From an uncultured Chthonomonadales bacterium (GTDB lineage Bacteria > Armatimonadota > Chthonomonadetes > Chthonomonadales > CAJBBX01), in NCBI GenBank assembly GCA_938005745.1, contig CALLMM010000002.1, forward strand, positions 101,000 through 164,999: DNA of 64,000 nucleotides, written 5' to 3'. The notes below the pieces were generated by a model that worked only from the letters and a program-made list of their open reading frames with translations, made no database searches and was not told the origin of the DNA. Numbering within the stretch: the first letter of the stretch is position 1; each line of letters opens with the position of its first letter. The position numbers and the translations under genes are program-made. Of the stretch, positions 7,632-62,095 are shown piece after piece.

Positions 7632-7702
7632 CGGCGCAGCCCGTAGCGGCGCAGCCCGTAGCGGCGCAGCCCGTAGCGGCGCAGCCCGTAGCGGCGCAGC
7701 CC
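7618..7702. repeat. 15-bp tandem repeat (GGCGCAGCCCGTAGC), 5 full copies plus a 10-nt partial copy
   Basis: Read directly: units at 7618, 7633, 7648, 7663 and 7678, with a partial unit at 7693-7702. The stop codon TAG of the upstream CDS (7629-7631) lies in unit 1. Confidence 0.95.
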
Positions 7703-27936: not shown

Positions 27937-27944
27937 GCATCACC

Positions 27945-36062: not shown

Positions 36063-36733
36063 AGTATCTGTTCCCGAGAGACCGCCTGACGCAGGGCGCG
36101 TATCCCTGCCGCCGGACCGTCCGGATGCGAAAAGAGGCTGGAGCCGGCTACCAGCACGTTCGCGCCCGCCGCGACGACCTGCGCCGCGTTCTGCGGACCG
36201 ATGCCCCCGTCAACCTCCAGTTCCACGGGACGCCCCGCTGCATCCAGCAGCTGCCGCGCCGCCGCGATCTTCGCCAGGGTCGCCGGAATAAACTTCTGAC
36301 CGCCGAAGCCGGGATTGACCGTCATCACCAGCAGCAGGTCTATCTCGTCCAGCACATGATCCAGCGCATTCAGGGGCGTGGCGGGATTGAGCGCGAGTCC
36401 CGCCTTCGCGCCCGCCTCGCGAATCTGCGCCAGCGTGCGCTGCAGATGGGTGGTCGCCTCCGCATGGACGGTGATGATGTCGGCGCCCGCCGCCGCAAAG
36501 GTCTCAATATACCGTTCCGGTTGAACAATCATCAGGTGGACATCGAAGACGGCGCGGGAGCGGGGGCGCAGCGCCTCGACCAGCGGCGCGCCGAAGGTGA
36601 GGTTCGGCACAAACAGCCCGTCCATGATGTCAAAATGCAGATACTCCGCGCCCGCCTCCTCGCACAGACGGGCGGCGGCGGCAAACGCGCCAAAATCGGC
36701 GGACAGCAGCGAGGGAGAGAGCTTCACGCTCAT
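36059..36733 (-). CDS. rpe: Ribulose-phosphate 3-epimerase
   Basis: 224 aa. LHFDIMDGLFVPNLTFG, DVHLM, MTVNPGFGGQKF and VDGGI motifs. Confidence 0.95.
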   Translation of the reverse strand: MSVKLSPSLLSADFGAFAAAARLCEEAGAEYLHFDIMDGLFVPNLTFGAPLVEALRPRSRAVFDVHLMIVQPERYIETFAAAGADIITVHAEATTHLQRTLAQIREAGAKAGLALNPATPLNALDHVLDEIDLLLVMTVNPGFGGQKFIPATLAKIAAARQLLDAAGRPVELEVDGGIGPQNAAQVVAAGANVLVAGSSLFSHPDGPAAGIRALRQAVSREQIL

Positions 36734-38604: not shown

Positions 38605-38608
38605 CAGA

Positions 38609-38917
38609 TTATCCCCTCTTTAACCGCAGGCGCAGCACGAAAAACAGAGCGGTCAGCGCCAGCAGCAACACATAGAAGGGCAGCAGGTCTAAAGAAGCCA
38701 GTTCCGGCAGGAAAGCGACGCCTTCCAGCTGCAGCTGCGTGCGCTGCACCGTGCCGACGTACTGGATCATGGGCAGGAGAATCCAGCCGGTCGCCAACCC
38801 CCAGCCGACAACCTCCCGCGCGGTCGGCTTGCCGCTTCGGGGCGTGTCCGCGCCGACCGTCACGGCATCGGTTCCGACGCCGCTCCGCCCCGGTCTCTTT
38901 CCGGCAGCCTTTTTCAC
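38609..38917 (-). CDS. Small membrane protein (102 aa)
   Basis: ORF with two hydrophobic helices. It overlaps the aroB stop by 4 nt and ends 4 nt before the kinase start. Confidence 0.4.
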   Translation of the reverse strand: MKKAAGKRPGRSGVGTDAVTVGADTPRSGKPTAREVVGWGLATGWILLPMIQYVGTVQRTQLQLEGVAFLPELASLDLLPFYVLLLALTALFFVLRLRLKRG

Positions 38918-40011
38918 GGCTCAGAACCACCTCTGCGCCGATGACGCCGAAGCGCGGCTTCGACCGCCTGTGCGGTAACATCCTTCACCACCGACACCCT
39001 GCCGATCTCCGAAGCCAGCACGAAGGTCAATCTGCCTCCCACCGTCTTCTTGTCGCGCTGCATCGCCTGTAAGACGGCGTCTGTGGAGATGTCGGCGGGG
39101 AATGCGGTCGGCAGACGCGCCTCCTGCAGCGCGTCCGCGATGGCGCCGGTCGTCTCCTTCGGCGTGATGCCCATCTCCTCCCCGATCAGACCGGCGGAGA
39201 CCATGCCGATGGAGATCGCCTCCCCGTGCTTGTAACGGCGATACCCGGTCAGCGACTCCAGGGCATGTCCGACCGTATGCCCGAAGTTGAGAATGGCGCG
39301 CAGTCCCTGCTCGGTCTCATCCTGCCCGACCACCTCCGCCTTCAGGGCGCAGGAGCGGAGGATCGCATGCGAGAGGGCGTCCGGGTCGCGGCGCAGAAGC
39401 CGCCTCATCTCCTCTTTTATACAGACAAAGAACTCCCTGTCGCAGATTATACCATACTTGATAACCTCCGCCAATCCGGAGCGCAATTCGCGGGCGGAGA
39501 GGGTCTGGAGGGTATCCGGGTCTATCAGAACCGCGCGGGGCTGATGGAAGGCGCCCACCAGATTCTTACCGCGCGCCAGGTCCACGCCCGTCTTGCCCCC
39601 CACGCTCGCATCCACCTGCGCCAGCAGAGTCGTAGGAACCTGTATAAAGGGGATGCCCCGCAGATAGGTCGCTGCCGTGAACCCGCCCACATCGCCCAGT
39701 ACGCCCCCGCCGAGCGTAATCAGCAGGCTCCGGCGGTCGAGCCCGGCATCCAGCAGCGCATCGTAGAGGCGCGCCACCGTCTTCAGGTTCTTGAAACGCT
39801 CTCCGGCGGGGACGGTGATCAGCGAGCAGGCGATCCCTTCGCGCGCCAGCCCTTCCAGCAGCGGAGCGGCGTACAGAGCCGCCAGCCGCGGATGAGAGAG
39901 CAGCGCGACGCGGGACGGTCTGCCAGCCCACTGCGCCGCCCGCGCCAGCAGTCCGCTCTCCACCACAATCGGGTAGCTGCGCGTTCCCAGATCAACAGTC
40001 AGTGTGCTCAT
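38914..40011 (-). CDS. aroB: 3-dehydroquinate synthase
   Basis: Start ATG 40009-40011 (MSTLTVDLGTRSYPIVV). GGGVLGDVGGFTAATYLRGIPFIQVPTTLLAQVDASVGGKTGV and the metal-binding HTVGHALE are present. The 546-aa track ORF is an artefactual upstream extension across aroK. Confidence 0.95.
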   Translation of the reverse strand: MSTLTVDLGTRSYPIVVESGLLARAAQWAGRPSRVALLSHPRLAALYAAPLLEGLAREGIACSLITVPAGERFKNLKTVARLYDALLDAGLDRRSLLITLGGGVLGDVGGFTAATYLRGIPFIQVPTTLLAQVDASVGGKTGVDLARGKNLVGAFHQPRAVLIDPDTLQTLSARELRSGLAEVIKYGIICDREFFVCIKEEMRRLLRRDPDALSHAILRSCALKAEVVGQDETEQGLRAILNFGHTVGHALESLTGYRRYKHGEAISIGMVSAGLIGEEMGITPKETTGAIADALQEARLPTAFPADISTDAVLQAMQRDKKTVGGRLTFVLASEIGRVSVVKDVTAQAVEAALRRHRRRGGSEP

Positions 40012-40037
40012 AGGCGTTGTGATTACGAATCGGCGTC

Positions 40038-40649
40038 TCAGGCGGTTTCGCCGTCCTCCTTCTCCTTTCGCGACGCGCCGCCAGTCCATCGCCATCGCTC
40101 CGCCTCGGCGTGATAGGCTTCCAGAACGCGCTCCGCCGCCTCCTCGCGGCTCAGTCCGGTCGTCTCGACGACGGCGTGCGCCGCCGCATGATAGTAGGGT
40201 TCTCTCTGAAGCAGCAGCGTCTCGATCCGCGCCAGGGGATCCGGCGCGTCCGCCAGCAGCGGACGGCTCTGACGATTGCCGACGCGCATCAGGATCTCCT
40301 CCGGCGCGGCACGAAGCAGGATCACCACGCCTGTGCGGCGCAGCCGCGCGACATTGACGGCGTTCATCACCGCGCCGCCCCCCGTCGCGATCACCAGGTG
40401 ATGCCCTCTCGCAAGGTCCTGCAGCGCTTCGGCTTCGCGGGTGCGGAAGGCGGCTTCGCCCTCCTCGGCAAAGATCTCCGGAATGAGACGACCCGCCCGC
40501 CGCTGGATCAGCGTATCGCTGTCGCGGAACCGAAACCCGAGCGCGCGGGCGCACAGGCGTCCGATAGTGCTCTTTCCGGTCGCCATGAAGCCGATGAGCA
40601 CCAGGTTCGGCTCACGCGGGCGTTCGGTTCCGGGGCGTGCAGTACTCAC
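40038..40649 (-). CDS. aroK: Shikimate kinase (with C-terminal extension)
   Basis: Walker A LIGFMATGKSTIG, RDSD, and ATGGGAV motifs. Confidence 0.9.
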   Translation of the reverse strand: MSTARPGTERPREPNLVLIGFMATGKSTIGRLCARALGFRFRDSDTLIQRRAGRLIPEIFAEEGEAAFRTREAEALQDLARGHHLVIATGGGAVMNAVNVARLRRTGVVILLRAAPEEILMRVGNRQSRPLLADAPDPLARIETLLLQREPYYHAAAHAVVETTGLSREEAAERVLEAYHAEAERWRWTGGASRKEKEDGETA

Positions 40650-40656
40650 GGAACGC

Positions 40657-41847
40657 TCAGCCCTGAGAGCCGAAACCGCGCTGGCGGATCGCGTCCCGGT
40701 AACTCTGAAGGTTTCGCAGAAGCTCCTCCATGCTGTCCCCGCCGAACTTCTCCAGCACCGCCTCGCACACCACGATCCCGACCATCGCCTCGCCGATCAC
40801 CCCGGCGGCAGGAACCGCGCAGACATCGGAGCGTTCAAAGTGCGCCGTTACCGCCTCACGGGTCTCCATATTCACCGAACGCAGGGGCGATTTCAAAGTG
40901 GAGAGGGGCTTCATGGCGGCGCGCACGACGATCGGCTCGCCGTTGGTCATGCCGCCCTCTAGTCCTCCGGCGTTATTGGTGCTGCGCGAGAAGCCGGTTG
41001 CGGGATCGTGGAAGATCTCGTCATGCACCTGCGATCCGGGGCGGTAGGCGACGCCAAACCCCATGCCGATCTCGACCCCCTTGATCGCCTGAATCCCCAT
41101 CAACGCCGCCGCCAGACGGCTGTCCAGCCGCCGATCCCAGTGGACATGGCTGCCCAGTCCGGGCGGACAGCCGATAGCGACCACCTCGAAGACCCCTCCA
41201 AGCGTGTCGCCGCGTGCGCCTGCGGCGTCTATCGCGGCGATAATCTTCTCCTCCGCCTCCGGATCGGCAACGCGCACCGGCGACGCCTCCGCCGCCCTCT
41301 CTACCTGCGCATAGTCCGGCGCAGGAGGCAGTTTCGCCTCGATCCCTCCGAGCACGGCGACATGGCTCAGCACGCGAATGCCGCACGCCTGGAGCAGCCC
41401 CCGGCAGATCGCCCCGACCGCCACCAGCGTCGCGGTATTGCGCGCGCTCGACCGCTCCAGAATGTTGCGCAGGTCGTTGGTGGCGTACTTGAGCATGCCG
41501 GCGAAATCGGCGTGTCCGGGTCGCGCCTCCACAATCGGGGGCGTCTCGCTCGCCACCGGCGCAACCGACATCCGGTCTCTCCAGTTGTCGAAATCGCGGT
41601 TGCGCACCACAAGCGTGATCGGGCTGCCCAGCGTGCGACCGAACCGCACGCCGGAGAGGATCTCCACCGTATCGCTCTCGATCTTCTGCCGGTCTCCGCG
41701 TCCGTAACCTCCCTGCCTCCGTTTTAACTGCCGGTTGATCTCTTCGAAGTCTATGGTGAGACCGGCAGGCAGACCTTCGATGACTGCCGAAAGCGAGGGA
41801 CCATGCGACTCTCCGCCGGTTAGAAAGCGAAACACGGGTGATGACAT
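40657..41847 (-). CDS. aroC: Chorismate synthase
   Basis: FRFLTGGESHGPSLSAVIEGLPAG, RPGHADF and SARNTA motifs. Confidence 0.95.
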   Translation of the reverse strand: MSSPVFRFLTGGESHGPSLSAVIEGLPAGLTIDFEEINRQLKRRQGGYGRGDRQKIESDTVEILSGVRFGRTLGSPITLVVRNRDFDNWRDRMSVAPVASETPPIVEARPGHADFAGMLKYATNDLRNILERSSARNTATLVAVGAICRGLLQACGIRVLSHVAVLGGIEAKLPPAPDYAQVERAAEASPVRVADPEAEEKIIAAIDAAGARGDTLGGVFEVVAIGCPPGLGSHVHWDRRLDSRLAAALMGIQAIKGVEIGMGFGVAYRPGSQVHDEIFHDPATGFSRSTNNAGGLEGGMTNGEPIVVRAAMKPLSTLKSPLRSVNMETREAVTAHFERSDVCAVPAAGVIGEAMVGIVVCEAVLEKFGGDSMEELLRNLQSYRDAIRQRGFGSQG

Positions 41848-41967: not shown

Positions 41968-43737
41968 TTAAGGAGTGATGCTCAATCCACCGACGTTGGC
42001 GGGACCGCCGCCCGTCGCGCCGCCCGTCGTCTCTTTGAGGATGGTCGGCGTTACAAAGACCAGCAGTTCGGTGTCGTTGACCCGCACATCGCGCGAGCGG
42101 AACAGCTGACCGATCAGCGGCAGATCGCCAAACAGCGGCACCTTTGAAGAACTCGACGAGTCGTTTTTGGTCGCCAGACCGGCGATCACCATCGTCTCGC
42201 CGTTTTTGATGCGGCGGCTGATGGGACCGATGATCTGCTGCGACAGGATCGGCGCGGTGATGCCTTCCGGACCGGTCACCTGTCCCACCACATCAATCAC
42301 GTAGGGCACGATGAACAGCGAGATGGTGTCGTCGCCGTTAATACGCGGCAGCACGAACATACCGGAGTTCGCCGAGACCACCTGAAGCTGAGTCTGCAGG
42401 ACGACGGTTCCGTTGCCTGCCGCCACCGGGCTGGTGATGAAGACGGGGATCTGCCGCCCGATGTTGATGTTGACCGGCACGTTGTTGAGCGTCGTAACCA
42501 TCGGGGCGCTGACAAGGCGTCCGCGACCTTCCGTCAGGGAGGTGCGCAGGTTCGCCACCAGGTTGCCGGTCGCGTAGTTGACGAAGACCTGACCGGCGGC
42601 GAAACCGGGCGCGCCCGCCACCACGTTCCCGCGGGTCAACTGCCAGTCAATACCGAACTGGCGCAGGTTGCTCTGATCTACCTGAATGAACTCGGACTTG
42701 ATCATCAACTGGCGCGGCGCGATGTCGAGCAGTCGGATGATCTCTTTGAGTTCGCGAATGGCTTCATCGGTTCCACGGGCAATGATCGTGTTATCCACAT
42801 CGTAAGCGATCACCGCCTCGATGTCGTCAGGAAGGAGACTGCCGGCTCCGCCGCCGCCCCCCTGTCCGCCGCCTAAGCCGCCGCCCAGACCGCCGCCCAG
42901 ACCGCCACCGATGCCGCCGCCCTGTCCGCCGCCGAAGCCACCGCCCAGACCGCCGCCGCGACCGCCGCCGATGCCGCCGCCCAGACCACCGCCGCGACCG
43001 CCGCCGATGCCGAACTGAAGCTCATCCGCTCCTGCGCCCGGAGCGCGGTTCTCCTGATTGACGGAGTCGCCCCTGGTGGGCACGACAGGCGGGACTGAAC
43101 GCTCAGGATCGTTCAAGCCCTGAATCTGCGGACGGTGATTGCGGCTCTTCTGAACATCCGTCCAGGGTTTGCCGATCTGCTCAAGGTTGGCATAGAGCAG
43201 TTCCCGCTCCACCCGGTTCAGAATGCCGTCCGTTTCGGGCTGCAGGAACGCGAGCAGTTCTGAGGGACGCGCATTCTGCAGGCGGATGCGCTCCGTCCGC
43301 AGTTTGCGAACGATCGGTTCATGAACGGTCTGGCTGTTATTGTTGTTGTTCTCAGGCTCTACTTTCGGCGCAGGCTGAGGCGCGAGACCTTTGGGACCGA
43401 TGATATAGACCCCGCCCTCGACACGCACCGATGCGCCCGCCGAACGCGCCATCAAGTTCAACACCTGGTCGAGCGGCTTATTCGTCAGGCTGAGAGTGAT
43501 CTTGCCGTAGGGCTTGTCGCTCGGCTCCACCACGATCTCGACGCCGGTCTGAGTCATCAGAAAACGAATAGCCTGCATAAGGTCCGCATCTGCCAGTTCG
43601 ATAGAGCGGACGATAATCTGGTCTGGCTTCGACTCTTGCGCGCGGCTAGACGGCGCGAGACCGATCGTTAGTCCCAGTCCCACGATCACTGCCACTATTC
43701 CGGCTCTCAAGCCGGAGGAACGAGCACGAAAGCCCAT
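41968..43737 (-). CDS. pilQ: Secretin (type IV pilus PilQ / T2SS GspD family) with internal poly-glycine repeat region
   Basis: 589 aa. Signal peptide, then an STN-like N-terminal domain (DADLMQAIRFLMTQTGVEIVV...GVYIIGPK). Secretin C-domain signature SKVPLFGDLPLIGQLFRS...ELLVFVTPTIL. aaggaggg RBS. Confidence 0.9.
   Translation of the reverse strand: MGFRARSSGLRAGIVAVIVGLGLTIGLAPSSRAQESKPDQIIVRSIELADADLMQAIRFLMTQTGVEIVVEPSDKPYGKITLSLTNKPLDQVLNLMARSAGASVRVEGGVYIIGPKGLAPQPAPKVEPENNNNNSQTVHEPIVRKLRTERIRLQNARPSELLAFLQPETDGILNRVERELLYANLEQIGKPWTDVQKSRNHRPQIQGLNDPERSVPPVVPTRGDSVNQENRAPGAGADELQFGIGGGRGGGLGGGIGGGRGGGLGGGFGGGQGGGIGGGLGGGLGGGLGGGQGGGGGAGSLLPDDIEAVIAYDVDNTIIARGTDEAIRELKEIIRLLDIAPRQLMIKSEFIQVDQSNLRQFGIDWQLTRGNVVAGAPGFAAGQVFVNYATGNLVANLRTSLTEGRGRLVSAPMVTTLNNVPVNINIGRQIPVFITSPVAAGNGTVVLQTQLQVVSANSGMFVLPRINGDDTISLFIVPYVIDVVGQVTGPEGITAPILSQQIIGPISRRIKNGETMVIAGLATKNDSSSSSKVPLFGDLPLIGQLFRSRDVRVNDTELLVFVTPTILKETTGGATGGGPANVGGLSITP
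42844..43011. repeat. Glycine-codon tandem repeat region inside the secretin gene
   Basis: Encodes GGGRGGGLGGGIGGGRGGGLGGGFGGGQGGGIGGGLGGGLGGGLGGGQGGGGG. It includes two adjacent near-identical 36-nt units (cagacc[g/a]ccgccgcgaccgccgccgatgcc...). Confidence 0.85.
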
Positions 43738-44045
43738 TCGTATGCCCTCCTTATATGAGCCTCACCTGAGTATGACTGCCCTCCATACGCATCCAGGAGG
43801 CGATCCGGCTGGGCTGCCAGCCGCGCTGCACAGTCCACAGCGTATAGTAGACGAAGACCAGGCACTCATGTCCTGCCTGCCTGTTTTCGACAAAGGGGAA
43901 GGAATATCCTTCTCAGTTTACGCCCGCGAAACGAATTCCGGACGGTTTTTTCTGAACGTTTGAGGCGCGCCCTCAGAGGGCAGGCGGCATGCCTGCCCTT
44001 CTGAAGTTACAGGTGCATGGTTTGAGGTTATGCTGGAAGCGCAGA

Positions 44046-44606
44046 CTACCGGCCCCGTCCGAAGCCGCCGCCGCCAAAGCCGCCGCCGAAGCCGCCCTGG
44101 CTGCCGCCGGTGCTGAAGCGCGACTCGATGTAGCTGCCGCCAAGCGCCAGCGCGATATCAATGGCGTCCGCGTAGTTGATCTGGATCTTCACAATCCGGG
44201 ATCGAGGCTGGGTCTCTCTTCCCGGCTCGTCCGGCGTGGTTCCCGGCTCGGGAGCCGCCTCCTGGCGCGGGGCGATATAGTAGACGTTATCTTCCACGCG
44301 ATAGGTCAGCGGATACTGGAAGGAGGTCGAACGCAGGACCGATTCCAGCGCGACCCGGAAAGGCACATCCGTCAGAGACGCCGTGACGGTTCCCTGAACC
44401 GCCTGATCCAGTTGATAGTTGGCTCCCACAGACTGGAAAAGCAGCTTCAGCGCAAAGCGAATGTCCGCATTCTCCAGATTCAGGGTAACCCGCTTCTGGT
44501 TGATATCCGACGCATCCTGTGCGCGAACCGGAACGCCGCTCAGGCAGACGGACGCCAGCACAATCGCAAGAGCCAAGCTTCCAGAGCGTCGTAAAGCCTT
44601 AAGCAT
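44046..44606 (-). CDS. Secreted STN-domain mini-protein (paralogue of the secretin N-terminus) with Gly-rich tail
   Basis: 186 aa. Signal peptide. NLENADIRFALKLLFQSVGANYQL...VYYIAPRQ parallels the secretin segment ELADADLMQAIRFLMTQTGVEIVV...VYIIGPKG. The C-terminus reads GGSQGGFGGGFGGGGFGRGR. aaggagga RBS. Confidence 0.6.
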   Translation of the reverse strand: MLKALRRSGSLALAIVLASVCLSGVPVRAQDASDINQKRVTLNLENADIRFALKLLFQSVGANYQLDQAVQGTVTASLTDVPFRVALESVLRSTSFQYPLTYRVEDNVYYIAPRQEAAPEPGTTPDEPGRETQPRSRIVKIQINYADAIDIALALGGSYIESRFSTGGSQGGFGGGFGGGGFGRGR

Positions 44607-44716
44607 CTTCAGGACTCCTCCTTATGGGTAGTCTGTTGCCAGTAAAAGGTGAACAGTCTCCCAACAGTTCACAAAATTCCAATGGTAACCCCGCTGCGGC
44701 AGCGACGACGCCAGCG

Positions 44717-45484
44717 CTAGTCTTCTGCTTCTCCCGCTCTTCCACCGCCGCCACCGCCGGCTCCAGGCAGTCCGCCGCCGAAGCCGGGACCGGGTCCGCC
44801 GGGCGGGAACGGCGCGCCGCCGCCAAAGCGCGGGACGTTGGACGAGCCGATATCCGTCAACGGCACGGTCTGCCGATAGGTTCGGTTGCCGACTTTCCGC
44901 TTCAGCGAGATGGACGTCGCATTAATAGACTCTACGCGGTAATCCCCCAGCATATCGCCGGGTTTTACCACGGTCTGCCCCTCCGGTCCTTCGACCAGAG
45001 CATAGACGCCCTGCCCGCTCAGGATGCCGGCGACGCGCCGGGTCGGCGTCTCGATGATCTCGACCGGCACCTCCGGCGGAGGCTCCACCTTGAAGGTCGC
45101 GATACGGATCATCGGGATCTGCGCCAGCACCGGCGGAGGCGGAGGCGTCGAGTCCCACCACGGTGCGAACGGGTCGGCGCGCCGCGCAGAGGGTCGGGCG
45201 GTCTCTTTCGGGGCTGCGCCCTGCGCGGGAGCGGCAGGCTGCGCCCCGCCGCCACCGCCGCCCATCATGCCGGGAGGCATCGCGGTGGACATCTGCCCGG
45301 CTCCGCCACCGCCCGGACTGGTCTGGGCGGGATCATCTTCTTCTTCGCGACCCCCTGTGCGGGGACCGGAAGCCGTACTGGTTGTGCCGGTGTCCTCTCC
45401 GCCGCCGCAGCCAGCCATCACCATTCCCAGCAGTGCGGCTCCCGCCAGCAACCCCAGGAATCTTCGTTTTTTCAGCATATTCAT
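44717..45484 (-). CDS. PilP-like pilus-assembly lipoprotein with Gly-rich tail
   Basis: Lipobox-like LLGMVMAGCGG. The beta-domain RVAGILSGQGVYALVEGPEGQTVVKPGDMLGDYRVESINATSISLKR resembles the PilP/GspC HR domain. Position between PilO-like and secretin genes. Tail is GGGAPFPPGGPGPGFGGGLPGAGGGGGG. Confidence 0.5.
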   Translation of the reverse strand: MNMLKKRRFLGLLAGAALLGMVMAGCGGGEDTGTTSTASGPRTGGREEEDDPAQTSPGGGGAGQMSTAMPPGMMGGGGGGAQPAAPAQGAAPKETARPSARRADPFAPWWDSTPPPPPVLAQIPMIRIATFKVEPPPEVPVEIIETPTRRVAGILSGQGVYALVEGPEGQTVVKPGDMLGDYRVESINATSISLKRKVGNRTYRQTVPLTDIGSSNVPRFGGGAPFPPGGPGPGFGGGLPGAGGGGGGRAGEAED

Positions 45485-45519
45485 CACCGTGATGTACCTC
45501 TCAGGGTAATCTGACAGTC

Positions 45520-46386
45520 CTACTCCTCGGCTAATCGCGAGGCGCCGCCCATGGATCCCATCGCGCCGCCGCCGCCCGGCGCCCCCCTGCCGCCCGGCGC
45601 GCCGGAGAAGCCGCCCGGTCCGGGCATGCCGCCGGGGAAGCCAGGGAAGCCGCCGCCAAAGCCGCCGCTGCCGCCCTGCTGTCCGCCGATACGCGGCTCC
45701 ACCGGAGGAATGGCATCGCGCACGATAATCGTGAGCGTTACATCATACTGCGCGATCAGGTTGGGGCTGTTTCCCGCCAGCTGGAAGTTCTCTATCGTCG
45801 GAACTCCCATGCCGCGAACGCCCTGCCATGCGCGAATATGATCCATCAGGGCGCGAATGCTGCGCGCCCGCACAGTCATCGGAAAGCGGTAGTGAATCGT
45901 TCCGTTCTCTCCCAGCCCCTCTCCCGGAAACATTCCCGCCTGGATGGTGTTGGGATCGGGACCATACGGACCCAGCCGCAGGACGCCGGGGTTCTCCCAT
46001 ACGATTCCCCGCGCCTTCTGCTCCTGCGCCATGTGCGCCCGGTAGGTGCGGATGAACCGCTCGGGCCACGAACGACCACTGTTGGGCCAGAACACCGTCC
46101 GCATGGTGGACAGGCGGTCGTTCGTATAGCCGAGTATCGGCATGTACTGCGCCTCAAACTGCGCGTACTGCGCCGTGGCGTCCGCCTTGTCCTTCTCCGC
46201 CTTCTCCTTATTTCGCCTGGCGGCGGGCAACTTATCGGCGCGCTCCTTGACGCCGTTGTACGCGACCTGGTTCTCCTCGATCTGCTTGTTCGCGGGCTGG
46301 ATCAGGAAATAGTAGAGCGCGCCAGCCACGATCAGCGCCACCACCGCGCCAATGATGTTGATGTGAAGCATCGTCAGCTTGCCCAT
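45520..46386 (-). CDS. pilO: PilO-like pilus-assembly protein with Gly-rich tail
   Basis: Single N-terminal TM helix, a coiled-coil segment (QPANKQIEENQVAYNGVKERADKL...) and a folded core. Position directly after PilN. Tail is GGQQGGSGGFGGGFPGFPGGMPGPGGFSGAPGGRGAPGGGGAMGSMGG. Confidence 0.55.
   Translation of the reverse strand: MGKLTMLHINIIGAVVALIVAGALYYFLIQPANKQIEENQVAYNGVKERADKLPAARRNKEKAEKDKADATAQYAQFEAQYMPILGYTNDRLSTMRTVFWPNSGRSWPERFIRTYRAHMAQEQKARGIVWENPGVLRLGPYGPDPNTIQAGMFPGEGLGENGTIHYRFPMTVRARSIRALMDHIRAWQGVRGMGVPTIENFQLAGNSPNLIAQYDVTLTIIVRDAIPPVEPRIGGQQGGSGGFGGGFPGFPGGMPGPGGFSGAPGGRGAPGGGGAMGSMGGASRLAEE
45543..45633. repeat. 91-nt repeat copy A (pilO 3' end), 86/91 identical to 46408-46498
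   Basis: Hand alignment of the two segments gives 5 mismatches and no gaps. Confidence 0.85.
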
Positions 46387-46399
46387 CTACTCTCTCCTC

Positions 46400-47218
46400 T
46401 TATTTCCCGCCGCCCATAGATCCCATCGCGCCGCCGCCGCCCGGTGCACCGCCGCCGCCCGGCGCGCCGGAGAAGCCGCCCGGTCCGGGCATGCCGCCCA
46501 TGCCGGAGTAGCCGCCCATACCCGGCATGCCCGGGAAGCCGCCGCCACCGCCGAAGCCGCCTCCGCCGCCTCCGCCCGCGCCGGGCGGATAGGAAGGCGC
46601 CGGCGGAAGCGGATTCACCAGACGCATGGTCACCGTAAAGTCGTGTCCGGTTATCCCCGGCGGGCGCAGGCTCGATCCCTGCTGCTGGGTCCCGAAGCCA
46701 CCCTGCTGCTGACCGGTCGTTCCGACGGGGAAGCCGGGAATAGAGTTCATGGCAATCGAGACGTTGCTGATGTTCGGGTTATTCCGCATCCAGCGCAGGT
46801 ATTCACCCACCACCGCCAGACTGGGCGCCCAGGCGCTGATGGTAACGGTGTCCCCCCGCGGCTGGAACGAACTGTAGAGAACGTCCCGGTAGGTGTACTC
46901 CTGAACGCTGCTGATCGCCTTCGGATAGGTCTCCTGAATATGGGTGCGCGCGTTCTGCACGAAGTCGCGCTTGCCGCGTATCTTTTCCGACTCGGCGTTG
47001 ATACTGTTCGCCTCGTTCTGCAGCCTGTCCGCCAGATCCGCGTCCGGGCGTATCTTCTCGGTATCCTCTTTGATCTGCGCCGCATGTGCGTTGAGGGCGG
47101 AGGTCCAGAACAGGAACCCGCCGACCACCGCCAGCACAATCACCGACCAGAGGATCATCAGATTGCGCCGTTTCGCTGGCTCATAGATATAGGGCGGTAG
47201 GAGGTTAATTTTCAACAT
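46400..47218 (-). CDS. pilN: PilN (fimbrial assembly) protein with Gly-rich tail
   Basis: MLKINLLPPY... is the canonical PilN N-terminus that binds PilM. TM helix and coiled coil follow. The roughly 70-aa tail reads PGAGGGGGGGFGGGGGFPGMPGMGGYSGMGGMPGPGGFSGAPGGGGAPGGGGAMGSMGGGK. Confidence 0.8.
   Translation of the reverse strand: MLKINLLPPYIYEPAKRRNLMILWSVIVLAVVGGFLFWTSALNAHAAQIKEDTEKIRPDADLADRLQNEANSINAESEKIRGKRDFVQNARTHIQETYPKAISSVQEYTYRDVLYSSFQPRGDTVTISAWAPSLAVVGEYLRWMRNNPNISNVSIAMNSIPGFPVGTTGQQQGGFGTQQQGSSLRPPGITGHDFTVTMRLVNPLPPAPSYPPGAGGGGGGGFGGGGGFPGMPGMGGYSGMGGMPGPGGFSGAPGGGGAPGGGGAMGSMGGGK
46408..46498. repeat. 91-nt repeat copy B (pilN 3' end)
   Basis: See copy A. Both encode GMPGPGGFSGAPGG(G/R)GAPGGGGAMGSMGG. 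Confidence 0.85.
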
Positions 47219-47235
47219 GGATGTCGTTACTCTCC

Positions 47236-48561
47236 TTACTTCTTTCCGCGCTTGCCGCCGGCGGCAGCTGTTGCCGGAGCCTGTACCATCTCGCGGGCGG
47301 CGAGTCCGATCGCCACCACGAAAGAGGGACCGATCTCACGCGCATACTCCGGTGAGAAGTTGCGCGAGGCAAGGCTTGCCAGCTGGAACGGATCGGCGAC
47401 GCGCGTCGGAATTCCCAGATCGGACTGCAGCAACTGATCCAGGTTCTTCAGATTGGCGGAACCGCCGCACAACAGTATCTCATCAATGCGCCCGTCCGCC
47501 GAGCGTCCACGGTAGTACTCTACCGAACGGCGAAGCTCGGTCAGCAGTTCGCTGAGCACCGGCGCGATGGCATTGAAGACCGCCACCTTCTGCGGGTCGT
47601 GCTCGGCAGCGGGCGCGCTCGGCTCCGGAGTAATACTCGCCTCAAAGGAGGGCGCAGGCGCAGACTCCTCCATGCCGGTCGGAGCGGTATCCGAAGGATC
47701 GGAGAAGTCGAACGGCATCCGATCCGGCGGCGGGGGCGCGGCGGTCGGAGAGGGGAGCGAGAAGTCCAGGAAGCCCTCCTCCTGCGCCGGAGCCTGTGGC
47801 TGTCCGACCTGATCCAGGATCACCTCCCCGAATTTGCGTTTCAACTCCTCCGCCTGTTCCGGCGTCACTCCTAGCTGCTGCGCGATATTGTGCGTCATCA
47901 TATCTCCCGCCATGGGCAGCACGCGCGGGAACGAGAGAATGCCGTTGCGGAACACGCCGATATCGGTGCTGCTGGCTCCGATATTGACGATCACGACCGT
48001 TCGTTCGCCGTAAGGATTCGGTCCCAGTTCCACCAGACAGCGGTTGGCAGCCAGCGGCTCCACATCTATCGCCTTGGGCTTCAACCCTGCCGCCAGAAGC
48101 ATCTGCACATGTCGGTCAATCATATCCTGCTGCGCAACCGCCAGCAGAACCTCCATGTTCGGGGCGTCGGGCGGGGCGTCCGGGCGAATGATGGGCTGAT
48201 AGTCCATGATCACCTCATTCGCCGCAAACGGCACATGGCGCTCCACCTCGTAACGCATCGTCTCCGCCAGCTCCGAGTCGGACATCTTCGGCACCTCGAT
48301 GACGCGCACCACCAGCGCGCCCTGCCCGGAGACGGAACTGACCGAGTCTTTGACCGTCACACCCGCCTCTTTCAGCAGGCGCTTGAGCGCGGCGCCCAGC
48401 TGCTGCGGATCCACCACCATGCCGTTTTCGAGCGTTCCGGGAGGCGTGGGAGCCATCCCCAGAGCCGTCACCGAAACGCCGCCCCGTCCGGCAGCGACCT
48501 GCGCGACCTTTATCATCTGCGAGCCGATATCTATGCCTACTCTCGGCGCACCACTAGCCAT
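47236..48561 (-). CDS. pilM: Type IV pilus assembly protein PilM (actin-like ATPase fold) with roughly 75-aa disordered insertion
   Basis: VGIDIGSQMIKVAQV..., VVNIGASSTDIGV, and ILLCGGSANLKNL are actin/FtsA-like phosphate and adenosine motifs typical of PilM. The gene is followed by pilN. Confidence 0.9.
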   Translation of the reverse strand: MASGAPRVGIDIGSQMIKVAQVAAGRGGVSVTALGMAPTPPGTLENGMVVDPQQLGAALKRLLKEAGVTVKDSVSSVSGQGALVVRVIEVPKMSDSELAETMRYEVERHVPFAANEVIMDYQPIIRPDAPPDAPNMEVLLAVAQQDMIDRHVQMLLAAGLKPKAIDVEPLAANRCLVELGPNPYGERTVVIVNIGASSTDIGVFRNGILSFPRVLPMAGDMMTHNIAQQLGVTPEQAEELKRKFGEVILDQVGQPQAPAQEEGFLDFSLPSPTAAPPPPDRMPFDFSDPSDTAPTGMEESAPAPSFEASITPEPSAPAAEHDPQKVAVFNAIAPVLSELLTELRRSVEYYRGRSADGRIDEILLCGGSANLKNLDQLLQSDLGIPTRVADPFQLASLASRNFSPEYAREIGPSFVVAIGLAAREMVQAPATAAAGGKRGKK

Positions 48562-48777: not shown

Positions 48778-51700
48778 CTACGGAGCTGCCGTAAGAGGAT
48801 AGAACTGCGGACAGAGAACCGTCGAGTAGAGGTCTACGGTTCCCGCGCGTGTGCTGGACCAGAAGACCCAGACACGATCCGTCAGCGGGTCTTTGAAGGC
48901 GCTGATCTGCCCCTCGTTCACCGCCGCGTCCAGCGGCATGGCGGTCTCATTGGTCGTCTGGTCGCCGGGCTGCAGCGCCACGCTGATCTCATCGCCCCAG
49001 GCGACGCGATAGCGCGTCTCCGGCACCGTCAGCACGTTGCCCTGTGCGTCACGGGCATAGTTGAAGACGACCCGGATGTTGTCGTTGCCTTCGTCCAGCT
49101 CCGTAAAGTAGAGGCGTCCGCGCACCCAGTCCACCTCCACCGGTCCCCGGTTTCCGGCGATCTGGATGTTGCTGCCCAGACTGTACTGACCGGTCTGGGG
49201 GTTGAAGTCGCGCAGTACGCCGCGCGGCAGGCGCACCATCAGGCGCATCGTCTTGTAGTAGATCGTCGCCGCCGAGGTGACGCCCGTCCCCGTCTTGCGA
49301 TAGAACGTCCACATCCGCGTCACCGGAACGATGCCGTTCTGCGGAAGCCCGAGGATATAGGGCGTGCGCGGGTTCGCAGAGCGGTCTATGAAGGCAACCG
49401 CTCCATAGTTCGAGCCTGCCGCCGGGACATGCGGGCGCGCGGCAAAGCCCGCGTCCGTCAGCCAGCCGGAGGGTATCTCGATGGCGCCGGAGTCGTTGCG
49501 CGTGACATTCACCCGCATCGCCTGCGGCGTATAGGTGACAAACAGACCGTCCGAGTTGCGCGGAGCCACATCCGGGAAGGTTACCGTCCCCAGCTGCGGA
49601 TCCACGATCAGTCGTCCGCCCAGCGCCGAGTTGAAGTAGAGCAGCCCGGTCGCGTTGTCGAAGGTCGGGCGTCCCTGCGTCAGCGGCGTGATCACGGAGC
49701 CGTCGGCGCGCCGCAGGCTCAGCGTGTAGGGCGGGTTGCCGTTGGCATCCACAAAGTCGCGCGTGCCCGGATCACGGAACACCCAGCCGATGTCGCGCGA
49801 CATCCAGACCTTCGAGGAGCCGTCGCGCACCATCAGCTCATTCTGCACCGCCGGAAGCGTTGTGACGAACAGCCGCCCGTTGCCTCCCAGCGTGTAGCGG
49901 GTCAGGAAGACCTCCGGCACGCGCCGATTGCGCATGACGCCGGTATAGAACAGGTCTATCGCGTCTATCAACTGTCCGCTCGCGTTGGGGATCAGCCGGC
50001 GAACCGGCAGCGGATCCGAGACCGAGATGAAGACGTTGGAGGTCGGAAGCGGAATGTCGCGCGACCAGTCGGTGACGCTGGTCAAGTCTCCGCCATTCAG
50101 GTTGTAGTAGATTCGCGAACGCCCGCTTGCGCCGCCGTACCAGAACAGGTAGGCGCGCCGCCGTCCGTTCACATCGGTCATCAGCAGCGGCTTCGGCGCG
50201 AACTTGGGCAGCGCGGGGTCGTTGAGGAAGGAGAATGGCACGCCGCCGTTGACCGTCGTATCGGGAGCCAGCGTATTGCGATCCAGCGGCACATAGAACG
50301 TGCGCGTATCAATCGTCGTGCTGCCGCCCTCGCGCTTGGTCACCGCGCCCTGCCAGAAGAGCCACGTGTCCAGATTGTTGACCGGAGCCAGGTCGTCCTG
50401 CGCCAGCGCGGGCGTGGCGTGGCGCACGTCGTAGTACTCTGCCGAGCCGTTGACCGGAAGCGTTACGAGCCGCCCCGGAACCAGCGGCGTATTGGGGTTG
50501 CCCGCCACCTCGGTCTGATTCGCCGGGAACAGTCGGGGCGTCAGTCCGGAGGCGACGCTGGCGTCCGGATACTGCGCGGACGCGCTCAGCGGCATCCACC
50601 AGCGCGTATTGCCCGGCTCAAACCGCCAGTCGAGAACCGTTCCGTTGTTGTTCGCCACCGCGTTCAGCCGCGTGAAGAACAGGGTCCACGGGCTGCCCCA
50701 CAGCGGCTCCGGCGGGCGGTTGTCGTTGAGGCGGTTGCTCGCCCAGAAGAGCGCGATGTGCCCGGTGCGCCGGTCGCGGATCGCCGCCGGAAGCAGGTTC
50801 GCTCCGAAGGCGGGCAGGCTGCCCCGCACATCAATCATCGGGAAGGTGCCGGGAGTCGTTCCGTTGGTCAGGCGCGTCTCGCGCACCGTCACCTTCAGCC
50901 GGAAGGGGTTGGACACCACCGGCTCCACCGGCGATGCGCGTCCGCCGTTGACGGCGATATTCAGGATACCGTCGTCGTCCTGCGCCGCCGCCACCGGACT
51001 GACCGGATTGCCCGTCAACTGCTGATAGGCTGCCAGCCACTGACGCCACGCCGTCGGCGTGAAGTCCTCGAACAGGTAGATCGGCGTGGTGTAGGTTCCG
51101 GCGGGAGTGCCCAGCGGAATGGCGATGCCGATCTTCGGGCGCACTTCGCGCCCCGGCACGCCGTTGCCGCCGGTGGTCAGCGTCCCGAGCACGCCCAGCG
51201 GATCGCCATACGCCACATCCGGGATCGAGAGCACCGTCGGGGCGGCGTCGCCCGGGCGCGCCTTGTGCAGGGTCGGGCGCGGATTGATTCCGGGCGCCCA
51301 CCCCTGACTCACCAGCGGGTTGCCAGCCTGCACATAGGGGTTGCCGCTCGGGAACAGCGCGGCGGGCAGACCCAGGGGCCAGAAGTTCTCGGTGCCGAAT
51401 CGCGCGTTGTAGTTGATCTCGATATCGAAGACATTCGATCCCGAGGCGACCGTGCGACCGTGGTCGAGCGAGGTGACCATGCCCAGATTGCCCACCGCCG
51501 GAAGACCGATCAGGTTAAACGGAACCGTCCAGATCTGCCCGACGCCGGTCAGCGTCTCCACCTGATCGCTGGTCATGCTTCCCCAGAAGCTCGGATCGGA
51601 GATGCTGGAGCCGGGCGCGCCGATCATCTTGGCGACGCGCAGGTTCACCAGGTTGACATTCCCCTCGTTCTTGACGGTGAACGGCGCGAAGAACCGCGTC

Positions 51701-54700
51701 TGTCCCGGCGTATCCCACGGCGAGAGGAAGGCGTTCAGCGGCGAGTTGCCGTTATAGGGTCCCAGGAAGCTGGGCGTGAACGGGATGTTGGGCGAGTAGC
51801 CGGTTGAATGGGGCAGACTGCCCATATCAATCGTCTCCTCTTCCGTGCGCAGACGAACATCCGGCGGGATCGCCACGCCCACATCGAGCTGCCGATAGAC
51901 CTCGTCGCGGCTGACCTGCGCCTGCTGCGCCTCGACCTGCGGCGCATTGCCGGCGAAGCGTCCGTCCCCATTGCTATCTATGTACACCACATAGCTGCCC
52001 ACATATCCGGCGCTCGGCGAGATCAGTCCGCTGATGCCGGGGATGCCGCCCGTTACCGGGTCGGTGCCGGCGGTAACCGCCATGGGAGCCATCAGCCCGT
52101 TGGGAAGTCCGACATTCACCCCGCCGGAGATGTCGAAGTAGATCCGATTGACGTTCGCCGGCTGGAATCTCGGCGCCGTCACCAGCAGATCGAGCGGCAG
52201 CGGATTGAGGGTCTTGACGCCCGTGGTCGTATCCACCGTCGGGCGCGGCAGCGGAATGCCGCGCGTGCTCATATCCACCCCGCCGCCTCGGAAGATGGAG
52301 GCGGTGCGGTCTATGTTCGGGTAGTCCAGCGAGTCGTTGGGCAGGCGGTTGGGGAAGTCTTCCCACGGCAGCGGGTTCATGACGCCCCCCGTCGCCGCGT
52401 AGAGTGCGTTGGTTTCGCCGGGGTTCCATCCCCAGCGCAATTCGCGCCGCTCCACGCGCACGTTGTTGAGCGACTGCCCCAGCTTGTAGAGGCTGCTGCG
52501 ATCGGCGATGAAGAGCGCGGGAACGCGGTTACCGTTGTTATCCACGCCCAGATACGCGCTGCTGCTGCCGTGATTGACCAGTCCGACCGGCGCAACCAGA
52601 TTCTTCTCGCCGGCGACCGTGATGCTGTTGGCAGCGATATTGACGACCCGGTTGCCGTTGGCGAGCACCTCGGTAAAGTCGGTGCCGCCGGTCGTCCAGC
52701 CAATGATATTGCGGAAGTTCGCTCCGACCGGCGTCCCGGCGGGGATGCTGCGGGTCGTCAGAGAGAACGGATGCGCCACAGCGATATTGCGGCGGTTATT
52801 GTTCGGCAGATCGTTGGGATCCTGTCCGGGAGCCGGGTTCGGATTGCCCAGCACCACCGAAGCCTGCCCCGCCGCAAGCTGGAAGGTCGGGAAGGTCGCC
52901 CCGCCCGGCGTCTGGATCTGCGCCTGCGCGAAGACGGTGTAGCGACGTCCGGGAGTCTGCGGATCGGCTTCGCTGCCGCGTCCGAGCGGGAAGGCGTACT
53001 TCGCCACCCAGGGAGTCGCCGGGTCTCCATTGAGGGTCAGGGGCGGACCGGCGTATGCGAGATCGCGCACCGCTCCGACCGTCACCGGCGGGCGGTTGGT
53101 TCCGGCTCCCGTCAGACGGAAGGTAACCTGCGGCAGCACCGGACCGGTATAGACGCCCCACGCCGCCACGTAGATGGTGTCGCCGTACTCATAGATCGTA
53201 AACCCGCCCTGACTGTTGGGCTTGGTGTTGTTGGCGTTCCACTCTGTCCAGGGTGAACGTTGAATCATCGGGTCGTTGGAGCCGAAGCCCTCGTAGGGAC
53301 CGTTCGCCGGGTTGTCCCGCCGCGACTCCCACAGCTCCACCAGCCGCAGATCCACGTTGCCCTGTCCGGCAGGCTGCACATCCGGCTCGTCCGGCGTGAT
53401 CATCCCGATGGTGTCAATCGCATAGGCGCGCATCTGTCCGTTGCGTTCGCCGGTGTCCGGGTTCCCCTCGTCTCCGCTGTAGACCCAGCCGTTGGCGGTG
53501 GTGGCGTCCGCACCCCGGAAGGCGTTGGAGGTCGAGAAGGTCGTCAGGTTGCCGTCGGCGTCTAGCAGCGGCACGCTGCCCACGATGGCGTCCACATAGC
53601 CCCAGAAGAGACGCCCGCCCGTCCGCACGCTCAGTCCGATGATCCCGCCCGTATCCAGAGGCAGCATGATCGCCGGTCCGGCAGCCGACAGGAAGCTCGG
53701 CTGCGGGGTCAGGCTATTGAGGAAGACGGCGGAGGCGCGGGTCGCGCCGAAGGTCCGGCTCTCCCAGAGAACGGAGGGTCCGCCGACCGGGTTGTTGTTG
53801 GGGCTGGCGTCAATCGCAAGGACGCGCCCGTCCTGATTGGCGATGAAGACCACCTCGTTGCCGCCGTTGAAGCCGGAGACCGACTGCCGGTAGGCGGGCG
53901 CGGTGAAGGCGGTATCCTCGCGCGGCTGATCGCCCGGGTTGGGATTGCCGGGCGGCGCGCTGGTGTAGGGATAGGTCCACTGCAGCGTGGCGACGTTATT
54001 CGGACCGCTCCCGCTGCTGCTGATTGCGTAGACGCGCCTTCCGGCGGTGAAGATATACTTGCCGGTCGGCGTCAGCACGCCCGGCTGCACGATCGGGTCG
54101 AGCTGCTGGTTCGGTCCCGGATATTGCCAGAGCGGACGCCCGGCGTTACTCGGGTTGGAGATACGCACGCGCGGATCGAGCGACTGCAGGTCAATCGCGT
54201 AGACGTGCCCGTCTCCGGCTCCCGCGATCACCTGATCGGTGCGGAAGTTGGCGTCCAGTTTGGGCGAGGCGAGCGAGGCGTCGAAGAAGCCCTTCGCCGG
54301 ATCGTCCGGATAGCGGGCGGAGTTATAGGCTCCCGCGCCCCCGTTGATTCCTCCGGCGCGCAGCCACTTGTCGCGTCCCAGCGTGGGCCAGGTCATCACC
54401 CGGAAGGTGGTGCCGGGAATGCCGGGATTGTCGCCCGCCGCCTGCGTCGCCGCATAGGGATCGTTGGTCGCCGGGTCGAATCGTCCGACCGCGTCGAAGG
54501 CGTAGATGCGTCCGTTGCGCGCGCCGATCACGATATACTTCTCGCGCACGCTGCCGCGCGGAACCTCCACATAGATCGGAGACGAGTAGAAGCCTCCCAG
54601 ATCCGGCACCTTTGCGTTGACCGTCCAGATGTCAATCGCGCCCGGTGGCGGGTTCGGGTTGGGTCGCTGCGTCCGCTCCAGATCGCCGTCAATGCCCTGC

Positions 54701-61997: not shown

Positions 61998-62095
61998 AGC
62001 CAGATTACCTGATGGGTGGAGTAAACGCAGAAGATGGGTAAATGAGCGCTTTTCCGTTTGAATGCTGCACATCTACCCATCTCCCCCTTCTCCTG

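Follow-up and report, generated by a model that had tools for sequence, protein, structure and literature searches.

We analysed a 64,000-nucleotide stretch of DNA from an uncultured Chthonomonadales bacterium of the phylum Armatimonadota (contig CALLMM010000002.1, positions 101,000 to 164,999; the whole stretch is referred to here as the window). On its minus strand, at 38.9-48.6 kb, the window carries a string of genes in the order pilM, pilN, PilO-like, PilP-like, STN, secretin, aroC, aroK and aroB. The genes from pilM to the secretin encode a trans-envelope module of the type IVa pilus (T4aP) kind, PilM-N-O-P-secretin, which belongs to a lineage of Armatimonadota that takes in Chthonomonadales and deeper relatives. 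All five periplasmic proteins of this module carry Gly-rich segments (40-62% Gly), and these segments recur in all 21 related genomes examined. The genes (lengths in amino acids [aa]) are as follows.

47236-48561, minus strand: pilM, 441 aa; cytoplasmic, actin-like; matches PF11104 at 2e-58
46400-47218, minus strand: pilN, 272 aa; MLKINLLPP start, transmembrane helix, periplasmic core
45520-46386, minus strand: PilO-like, 288 aa; transmembrane helix, long coiled coil, alpha/beta core
44717-45487, minus strand: PilP-like lipoprotein, 256 aa; lipobox VMAGC, beta core
44046-44606, minus strand: STN (free-standing secretin N0-N1) protein, 186 aa; own signal peptide
41968-43737, minus strand: secretin, 589 aa; signal peptide, N0/STN domain, one split N-domain, secretin core
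38914-41847, minus strand: aroC, aroK and aroB; Chorismate_synt 1e-118, SKI 2e-45, DHQ_synthase 1e-47

The position of the aro genes directly downstream of the secretin gene is the classic pilQ/hofQ-aroK-aroB neighbourhood. The M-N-O-P-secretin order is kept in the 21 genomes, which comprise 19 species-level Chthonomonadales genomes and two remote loci, L020 and L021 (PilO-like E-values, 1e-5 and 1e-15). In the 19 genomes the module runs in the same order from pilM to the secretin as far as each contig extends, and aroC follows the secretin gene in 7 of the 8 loci with DNA reaching past it. The remote loci share the same operon; aroC-aroK-aroB is present in L021, and aroK, aroB and a downstream PASTA kinase gene are present in L020. 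The GC content of the window is 62-68%, and GC at third codon positions (GC3) is 0.72-0.82 in the called reading frames. No PilB/PilT ATPase, PilC platform or pilin gene was found among the proteins scanned in this 64-kb window.

Identity of the module's components

The initial annotation, made from the letters alone, had proposed a type IV pilus (T4P)-like PilM/N/O/P/STN/secretin module, and this proposal is supported by family matches, orthologue profiles and fold comparison. A Pfam and NCBIfam check matched PilM, the secretin and the STN protein but assigned PilN, the PilO-like protein and the PilP-like protein to no family. Because these three were unrecognised by both collections, they were assigned by searching family profiles against the PDB and by fold search.

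PilM matched PF11104 with 198 bits (cut-off, 27) and TIGR01175 with 231.5 bits (cut-off, 133). In place of a Gly tract it bears, as first described, a Pro/acidic insertion, which was read from the translation as a disordered segment at about residues 250-325 (nt 47587-47814). PilM orthologues also bear insertions, with NPF/DPY-type repeats. The insertion is conserved and contains short repeated motifs (PFDF in the window; NPFD/NPFA in the two remote loci, L020 adding DPYAAPA repeats), and such repeats could be docking motifs for another pilus protein. The PilM open reading frames (ORFs) of L018 and L019, read stop to stop, span 542-547 residues.

The Pfam PilN model gave no match to the window PilN. 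A profile of 13 orthologues matched Myxococcus xanthus PilN (3jc8_Na; E 2.2e-6), and the N-terminal INLLP motif is invariant in these 13. For the PilO-like protein, the Pfam scan returned only a weak T2SSM match (E 0.006) and no PilO match, and a sequence-profile search of the PDB returned none. An AlphaFold2 (AF2) model of its core, with a predicted local distance difference test (pLDDT) score of 74, consists of a transmembrane helix, a long helix and an alpha/beta core. The top fold match was M. xanthus PilO (3jc8_Oa; probability 1.0, E 1.8e-3), followed by Akkermansia Amuc_1100 and by Pseudomonas aeruginosa PilO (2rjz; probability 0.85-0.91); TM-scores were modest, at 0.3-0.5. The position of the gene in the operon also fits PilO. 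The PilP-like protein had no PilP match in the Pfam scan; a profile of its core matched PilP structures alone (2ivw, 2y4x, 2lc4 and 4av2), weakly at E ~0.1, and its L020 orthologue gave a weak T2SSC match.

The STN protein matched PF07660 (1e-6) and the N-terminal part of TIGR02515 (2e-13). Its family profile matched residues 280-404 (N0-N1) of P. aeruginosa PilQ (1e-11), and the N0 domain within the secretin itself is its paralogue (28% identity, E 7e-7). The secretin matched PF00263 (110.6 bits, 8e-32) and Secretin_N (29.2 bits), with an STN score of 24.1 bits that lies under the cut-off of 28.4, and the top fold match of its AF2 model was Vibrio cholerae PilQ (6w6m; E 3e-19). It scored 162 bits against the PilQ-specific model TIGR02515, under the cut-off of 284, and is therefore treated here as a PilQ-like member of the secretin superfamily and not as an equivalog. 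AMIN domains were absent from the secretin in both the Pfam scan and the AF2 model.

A divergent T4P-like module in a non-proteobacterial diderm has a parallel in Akkermansia Amuc_1098-1102, with Amuc_1100 among the top fold matches of the PilO-like protein. NCBIfam matches to the Amuc_1101 and Amuc_1098 families were weak and far under their cut-offs (123 versus 650 and 76 versus 750, respectively).

Glycine-rich segments on the periplasmic proteins

The claim that all five periplasmic proteins carry Gly-rich segments was confirmed from the translations. The segments, together with two further low-complexity regions of PilN and the PilP-like protein, are as follows.

46403-46606, minus strand: PilN C-terminal tail, residues 205-272; Gly/Met/Pro
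46646-46723, minus strand: PilN internal loop, residues 166-191; Gly/Gln-rich
45523-45687, minus strand: PilO-like C-terminal tail, residues 234-288; Gly/Pro/Phe/Met
44720-44836, minus strand: PilP-like C-terminal tail, residues 218-256; Gly/Pro, acidic tip AGEAED
45188-45409, minus strand: PilP-like N-terminal linker, residues 27-100; Gly-rich
44049-44123, minus strand: STN tail, residues 162-186; (GGGF)n, with the stretch GGSQGGFGGGFGGGGFGRGR, ending GFGRGR
42841-43011, minus strand: secretin insert block, residues 243-299; (GGGX)14

The start coordinate first given for the module, nt 42844, cuts the secretin within its Gly block and leaves the secretin core outside the range. The same annotation had placed this block between the N-terminal domain of the secretin and its core. 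It is indeed internal and lies before the core, but it is not an inter-domain linker: it sits in a loop inside the N-domain, between helix 1 and strand 2. The Secretin_N match covers residues 148-343 for a profile of only 69 positions, a split match, and the domain is interrupted by an insertion of about 140 aa that includes the (GGGX)14 block. In the AF2 model the domain resumes on the far side of the insertion, with a strand (147-152) and a helix (158-165) before it and two strands (306-312 and 317-322) and a helix (324-337) after it. pLDDT is below 50 at residues 183-298 and 31-38 across the Gly block, so that the insert, the one segment modelled, is predicted to be disordered. The secretin C-terminus (41968-41990 and orthologues) also ends in a short Gly-rich stretch (for example, ...GGLSITP, ...GGGPTP and ...GGVSP); the last residue is Pro in 9 of 11 genomes, and in L018 and L019 this C-terminal tail consists of 23-32 residues of Gly/Ala/Val.

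In order to assess how unusual the segments are, they were compared with a background of 32 other probable proteins (18,190 residues) from this one 64-kb window, a set that includes large secreted proteins, a tricorn-like protease, glycosidases and giant ORFs. The maximum number of Gly per 30 residues was 15-23 in the five pil proteins and 2-13 in the 32 others (Fisher p = 2.3e-6); at a threshold of at least 15 Gly in 30 residues, 5/5 periplasmic pil proteins and 0/32 others are selected. The initial annotation had warned that similar Gly tails might occur in unrelated proteins, and none was seen among these 32. The specific counterexample that it feared, a beta-barrel protein at 16657-19716, peaks at 13 Gly per 30 residues, and its tracts differ in make-up, being (GT)n and G/N/S/F/Y. 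This plus-strand gene encodes a 1019-aa signal-peptide protein without a Pfam family, with alternating beta-like segments and a C-terminal Phe, and its sequence suggests that the product is probably a large outer-membrane beta-barrel.

The tails had been described as matching. All five segments are Gly-rich, as claimed, but they split into two compositional classes. The inner-membrane class (PilN, PilO-like and PilP-like) combines about 41% Gly with Met, Pro, Ala and Ser. The outer-membrane class (STN tail and secretin insert) is 53-62% Gly and has the form (GGGX)n, where X is Phe, Tyr, Met, Leu or Gln; neither of its members has much Pro, and the STN tail has almost none. Compared with the window background, Gly makes up 40-62% of the tails (background, 9%), Met 11% of the PilN and PilO tails (2.1%), Phe 7.6% of the STN tails (3.6%), Asp plus Glu 1.5-4.4% of the tails (10.7%) and Arg 1-5.6% (8.3%), and Ala shows no enrichment. 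GGG contributes 2% of the Gly codons in the tails and 20% in the background, and GGC contributes 75% and 47%, respectively. Met, Phe and Tyr have AT-rich codons, and their enrichment counts against GC-driven drift. GC bias was ruled out as a cause by this non-Gly residue make-up and by the lack of such segments in neighbouring proteins.

The initial annotation had also recognised that its claim would fail if the tails were absent or not conserved in relatives. They are conserved throughout: in 21/21 genomes, where every complete PilN, PilO, PilP and STN orthologue has its tail; in 57/57 PilO-like database homologues, all with a Gly-rich C-terminal tail of 40-95 residues and, where named, from Armatimonadetes or Chthonomonadales; and in 29/29 PilN database homologues. 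Core identity across these homologues falls to about 25%. A HMMER scan of 1.84 billion representatives recovered 160 members of the PilO-like family. At least 12 Gly in 30 residues were present in 74 of the 106 full-length remote PilO-like proteins, most of the others having Pro/Ala/Gly/Met-rich tails, and the named remote homologues are Chthonomonadetes or Armatimonadota. A search for PilN-core homologues as a cross-phylum control returned in-clade proteins alone, which leaves Escherichia coli Hof as the sole out-group control. HofMNOPQ-aroK-aroB matches the window in operon order and in the shikimate genes that follow, but the E. coli Hof proteins are compact (179, 146, 134 and 412 aa) and tail-less, with a maximum of 2-6 Gly per 30 residues.

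The secretins that span the region (10 orthologues) all have the Gly block at one position. Among more distant secretins, relatives of about 40% identity or more have a Gly-rich block where they are long enough, except P0241 and P0246; one relative bearing the block is labelled Fimbriimonadales, and the partial secretin relatives include Fimbriimonadales. Canonical PilQ proteins are without an insert at this site. Neisseria PilQ has small basic repeats that lie N-terminal to N0 and are confined to the secretin. It resembles the present case in having low-complexity repeats upstream of the core of a T4P secretin, whereas the repeats described here are uncharged Gly repeats, lie inside an N-domain loop and have counterparts on all the partner proteins.

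Among orthologues the segments keep their composition and position but change in sequence and length. Orthologue STN tails reach about 100 aa of (GGGGF/Y/M)n, and their length varies five-fold between close relatives. The internal loop of PilN (window residues 166-191) grows to about 100 Gly/Met-rich residues in L013 (6770-7999) and L016 (6861-7982), so that PilN has two expandable low-complexity sites. Two of the tail tips are conserved. The STN tail end is basic in 12/12 complete orthologues, those of the remote loci included, and mostly takes the form R-G-x-F (...FRGGF, ...NRGSF, ...GGRGF); the PilP tail end is acidic in 16 of 20 genomes (...GAESEL, ...AGEAED). We also considered Lpp-like covalent attachment to the wall through a C-terminal Lys. 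This idea was dropped, as a C-terminal K or R on PilN occurs in some genomes but not consistently.

At the DNA level the Gly segments rest on tandem repeats of 12, 18 and 60 nt, and the pilN and PilO-like tails share a longer repeat. The repeats located in the window are as follows.

45543-45633, minus strand: 91-nt repeat copy in the PilO-like tail, 95% identical to 46408-46498; encodes GGMPGPGGFSGAPGG-GAPGGGGAMGSMGG
46408-46498, minus strand: 91-nt repeat copy in the pilN tail, partner of 45543-45633
42853-43007, minus strand: tandem DNA repeat in the secretin (GGGX)n block (Tandem Repeats Finder), of period 60 nt x 2.4 copies at 89% match and of period 12 nt x 11.8 copies

Substrings common to the PilN and PilO tails are longer within a genome than between genomes (permutation p = 5e-5), and the sharing is clearest in the window, in L001 and in the distant L021. 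Read from these sequences, the PilN and PilO tails exchange DNA, and the tails as a group appear to evolve by tandem-repeat expansion together with this exchange. Covariation within genomes was assessed by tests without phylogeny correction. For composition, it was seen in the Met content of the PilN, PilO and PilP tails (rho 0.55-0.67) and in the Tyr content of the STN tail and secretin insert (rho 0.96, n = 7). For length, it was seen for the PilP tail with the STN tail (rho 0.66) and was not detected among the segments of PilN, PilO, PilP and the secretin.

Many contigs of metagenome-assembled genomes stop in or just after Gly-repeat DNA (L002, L004, L005, L008, L009, L010, L011, L014, L016 and L017): the break falls in the STN tail in seven, just past it in one, and in the secretin block and the PilO tail in one each. 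In L001 the Gly-repeat region (~9790-10572) holds a run of N. Secretin entries for this clade in the database are mostly cut short (217-465 aa), and that of the window is absent from the matches listed. In practical terms, Gly repeats break metagenome assemblies and shorten gene calls, so that the secretins of this phylum are systematically mis-annotated.

The module is a variant of a known machine. Its likeness to PilMNOPQ of M. xanthus and P. aeruginosa (3jc8, 6ve2 and 2rjz) extends to the gene order, the PilM family, the INLLP motif and profile match of PilN, the PilO-like fold, the PilP-like lipoprotein, the N0 domain and secretin core, and the downstream aroK-aroB genes. It differs from those systems in several respects: Gly-rich segments of 25-100 residues on all periplasmic subunits, no AMIN domains, an extra free-standing N0-N1 protein, a single N-domain that an insertion of about 140 residues interrupts, PilN/O/P cores beyond the reach of Pfam, and a conserved protein of about 2700 aa encoded upstream. 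A search of the literature found no account of Gly-rich PilN/O/P tails or of this Armatimonadota module, which is not proof of absence. T4aP PilMNOPQ is a known machine, and three lineage-wide features of this version were not found described: the Gly segments, the N0-N1 leash protein and the giant upstream protein. T4P machines rank with the most thoroughly studied machines of the envelope, and their alignment proteins are described as compact folds; here one lineage has added disordered, uncharged Gly chains to every periplasmic subunit and has placed such a chain in a secretin loop proposed elsewhere to constrict the channel.

Possible roles of the segments

The most likely role of the Gly segments, which we put forward tentatively and with somewhat less than even confidence, is that of flexible tethers and a tethered luminal plug or filler in the periplasmic cage. 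In this reading the segments would act as flexible tethers and space-filling chains within that cage. The secretin blocks, with about 60-80 residues per subunit and about 12-15 subunits per ring, could extend into the vestibule below the gate, or line its wall, and would there form a built-in soft plug or constriction that is pushed aside by the pilus. The STN and PilP tails would be leashes that show their tips (basic, mostly R-G-x-F, and acidic E/D, respectively) to partners, as the conservation of these tips, which would serve as short ligands, suggests. The PilN and PilO tails would make up an uncharged, Met-rich brush around the pilus path.

The site of the secretin insert provides one line of support. 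In InvG, a secretin of the type III secretion system (T3SS), a variable loop of the N3 domain, which is disordered in other secretin structures, has been proposed to form a periplasmic constriction of the empty channel and becomes re-ordered on needle passage (PMC6155069). The insertion described here occupies the topologically equivalent position, between helix 1 and strand 2 in the N-domain adjacent to the barrel. Because it emerges from the loop proposed to constrict the InvG lumen, it is well placed to plug the space below the gate as a soft, tethered chain. The two cases differ in that the InvG loop has about 50 residues of ordinary sequence and belongs to a T3SS, whereas the loop described here has about 140 residues, including (GGGX)14, and belongs to a T4P machine.

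A second line comes from P. aeruginosa, where SlkA and SlkB occupy the vestibule/lumen of PilQ, stopping antibiotic influx (PMC13392014). The sealing of PilQ by these proteins indicates that secretin channels need a luminal seal, and this supports the plug reading. The likeness is in concept only, namely that material in the secretin vestibule keeps the outer-membrane barrier until the pilus passes; it is not one of homology, as the Slk plugs are separate proteins and the plug proposed here would consist of covalently tethered disordered chains. If the plug/filler proposal is true, it would represent a second solution to the secretin leak, beside the Slk plugs, and a rare functional disordered or phase-forming protein in the periplasm.

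Several points weigh against this proposal. In needle-bound InvG the equivalent loop threads outward between N1 and N3 and not lumen-ward (PMC6155069). P0241, P0246 and more distant secretins carry non-Gly low-complexity inserts at the same site, so that the exact chemistry may not matter. The segments are highly variable in sequence and length (the STN tail ranges from 20 to 100 aa), and the tips of the PilN and PilO tails are unconserved. The background for the rarity comparison was 32 proteins from one 64-kb window and not a whole proteome, and the covariation tests, as stated, do not correct for phylogeny.

The Gly/aromatic and Gly/Met chains of the five proteins might alternatively form a cohesive gel, a selective phase like that of the FG-nucleoporins that seals the conduit around the pilus; we consider this unlikely. 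Two reports describe phase separation of Gly-rich aromatic proteins (PMC11794139, PMC13261584). The chains are nearly uncharged and have hydrophobic or aromatic "stickers" set at regular intervals among Gly spacers, as in (GGGGF)n, (GGGY)n and (GGM)n. The covariation of Met (rho 0.55-0.67) and Tyr (rho 0.96, n = 7) contents between components is consistent with a shared phase but could stem from shared ancestry or gene conversion. Judged by sequence, the aromatic (GGGX)n class could plausibly cohere on physical grounds, and cohesion is doubtful for the Pro-rich class, since the PilN, PilO and PilP tails are Pro-rich and aromatic-poor. The likeness to the FG-nucleoporins resides in the (GGGX)n repeats of the STN protein and the secretin, for which anchorage around the conduit is suggested by the insertion site. 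A further point against a gel is that FG domains have polar, and not Gly-only, spacers. SSB has a Gly/Gln/Pro linker with an acidic tip, GroEL has a (GGM)n tail, and FG-nucleoporins have Phe-Gly repeats lining a cavity. These unrelated cytoplasmic and nuclear proteins offer a physical analogy only, that of a disordered Gly-rich chain with a short conserved tip and of Gly-Met or Phe-Gly repeats that line a cavity.

In a more definite version, about 60-70 Gly-rich chains per machine, a number that assumes 12-15 copies of each of the five proteins, would act as a cohesive, nucleoporin-like soft phase in the pilus conduit, with the secretin (GGGX)n loops and the leash-like N0-N1 protein making a self-sealing plug under the gate. 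We rate this version as rather improbable. If it were true, the machine would need no separate plug proteins to remain sealed around the sliding pilus, and a periplasmic condensate would be bound to a membrane machine.

We hold it similarly doubtful that the segments are spacers that lengthen the machine for an unusually wide periplasm or cross the wall in place of the absent AMIN domains. The secretin does lack AMIN domains, two low-complexity segments (the N-terminal linker of PilP and the one joining N0 to the N-domain in the secretin) are genuine inter-domain linkers, and the correlation of PilP and STN tail lengths (rho 0.66) is as a spacer would predict. A pure spacer is weakened by the location of the segments: four of the five are C-terminal ends and the fifth is an intradomain loop, so that no distance is set unless a tip is anchored. 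The lack of length covariation among PilN, PilO, PilP and the secretin also weakly disfavours it, as does the five-fold variation of STN tail length between close relatives.

The segments might also be a tolerated mutational by-product, in which slippage-prone, GGC-rich repeats expand without function where the tails and loops of proteins encoded by a GC-rich genome tolerate them. This too seems unlikely to be the explanation. It would account well for the tandem DNA repeats of period 12, 18 and 60 nt, the 91-nt pilN/pilO tail exchange, the use of GGC for 75% of tail Gly codons, the unconserved sequence and length, and the other low-complexity inserts found at the same site in distant secretins. 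It does not predict segments on all five proteins in all 21 genomes and on every PilN and PilO homologue found, nor their absence from 32 neighbouring proteins, large secreted ones included. It is also at odds with the enrichment of Met, Phe and Tyr, which have AT-rich codons, but not of Arg and Ala, with the conserved STN and PilP tips, and with frames that stay open everywhere through 40-100 low-complexity codons. A neutral by-product accounts for the fluidity of the sequence but not for the universality of the segments, their restriction to the module, their residue bias or their tips.

Periplasmic copper-resistance proteins have Met-rich inserts, and the Met-rich Gly tails of PilN and PilO (11% Met, with many MGGM/MPGM-type spacings) might by the same token bind Cu(I)/Ag(I) or scavenge oxidants. 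Such a metal or redox buffer is very improbable: His or Asp partners are lacking, Met is swapped for Phe, Pro or Ala in several lineages (the window, L010, L020 and L021), and no copper-handling genes lie nearby among the window proteins scanned.

Finally, an artefact of wrong frame, repeat mis-assembly or a split pseudogene (the STN protein and secretin as one broken pilQ), to which contigs breaking within repeats, the N run in L001 and the truncated database secretins might point, was rejected as barely credible, given a GC3 of 0.72-0.82 for the called frames, the agreement of 21 independent assemblies in frames and architecture (6.1-Mb, 3.0-Mb and 1.07-Mb contigs among them), and an STN protein and secretin that each have their own signal peptide and N0 domain and are kept separate in 21 genomes.

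Neighbouring genes and other features of the window

Outside the pilus and shikimate genes, the following features were recorded.

48778-56808, minus strand: secreted giant protein, 2676 aa, directly upstream of pilM; without a Pfam family
56871-62072, minus strand: very large secreted ORF, 1733 aa; borderline DUF4159 match
62096-64000, minus strand: very large secreted ORF, >633 aa; without a Pfam family
36730-38619, minus strand: PASTA-domain Ser/Thr kinase gene, downstream of aroB
26797-27939, minus strand: bacterial archaeo-eukaryotic release-factor-like (baeRF-like) protein
7618-7702: perfect 15-nt tandem repeat, GGCGCAGCCCGTAGC x 5.7

For the three giant secreted ORFs directly upstream of pilM, the borderline DUF4159 match is the only Pfam family match. 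A giant gene is found upstream of pilM in the 17 Chthonomonadales loci whose DNA reaches there; its product is an orthologue of the 2676-aa protein (39-95% identity) in 15 of those 17, with no match in L018 and L019. Giant genes also precede pilM in L020 (2393 aa) and L021 (2777 aa), the L020 product having faint PQQ_2 and weak Golvesin_C matches. The 2676-aa protein may be a PilY1-like pilus-associated adhesin.

The PASTA kinase gene is likewise downstream of aroB in the distant L020 (13869-15632), which indicates that the conserved neighbourhood reaches beyond the pilus and shikimate genes. The baeRF-like protein matched family 3 at 4e-42, and its gene adjoins a phosphoribosyltransferase-domain gene and a hydrolase gene. 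The GGCGCAGCCCGTAGC repeat sits where the 3' end of a Laminin_G/beta-helix ORF (4125-7631) meets the gene for the tricorn-like protease.

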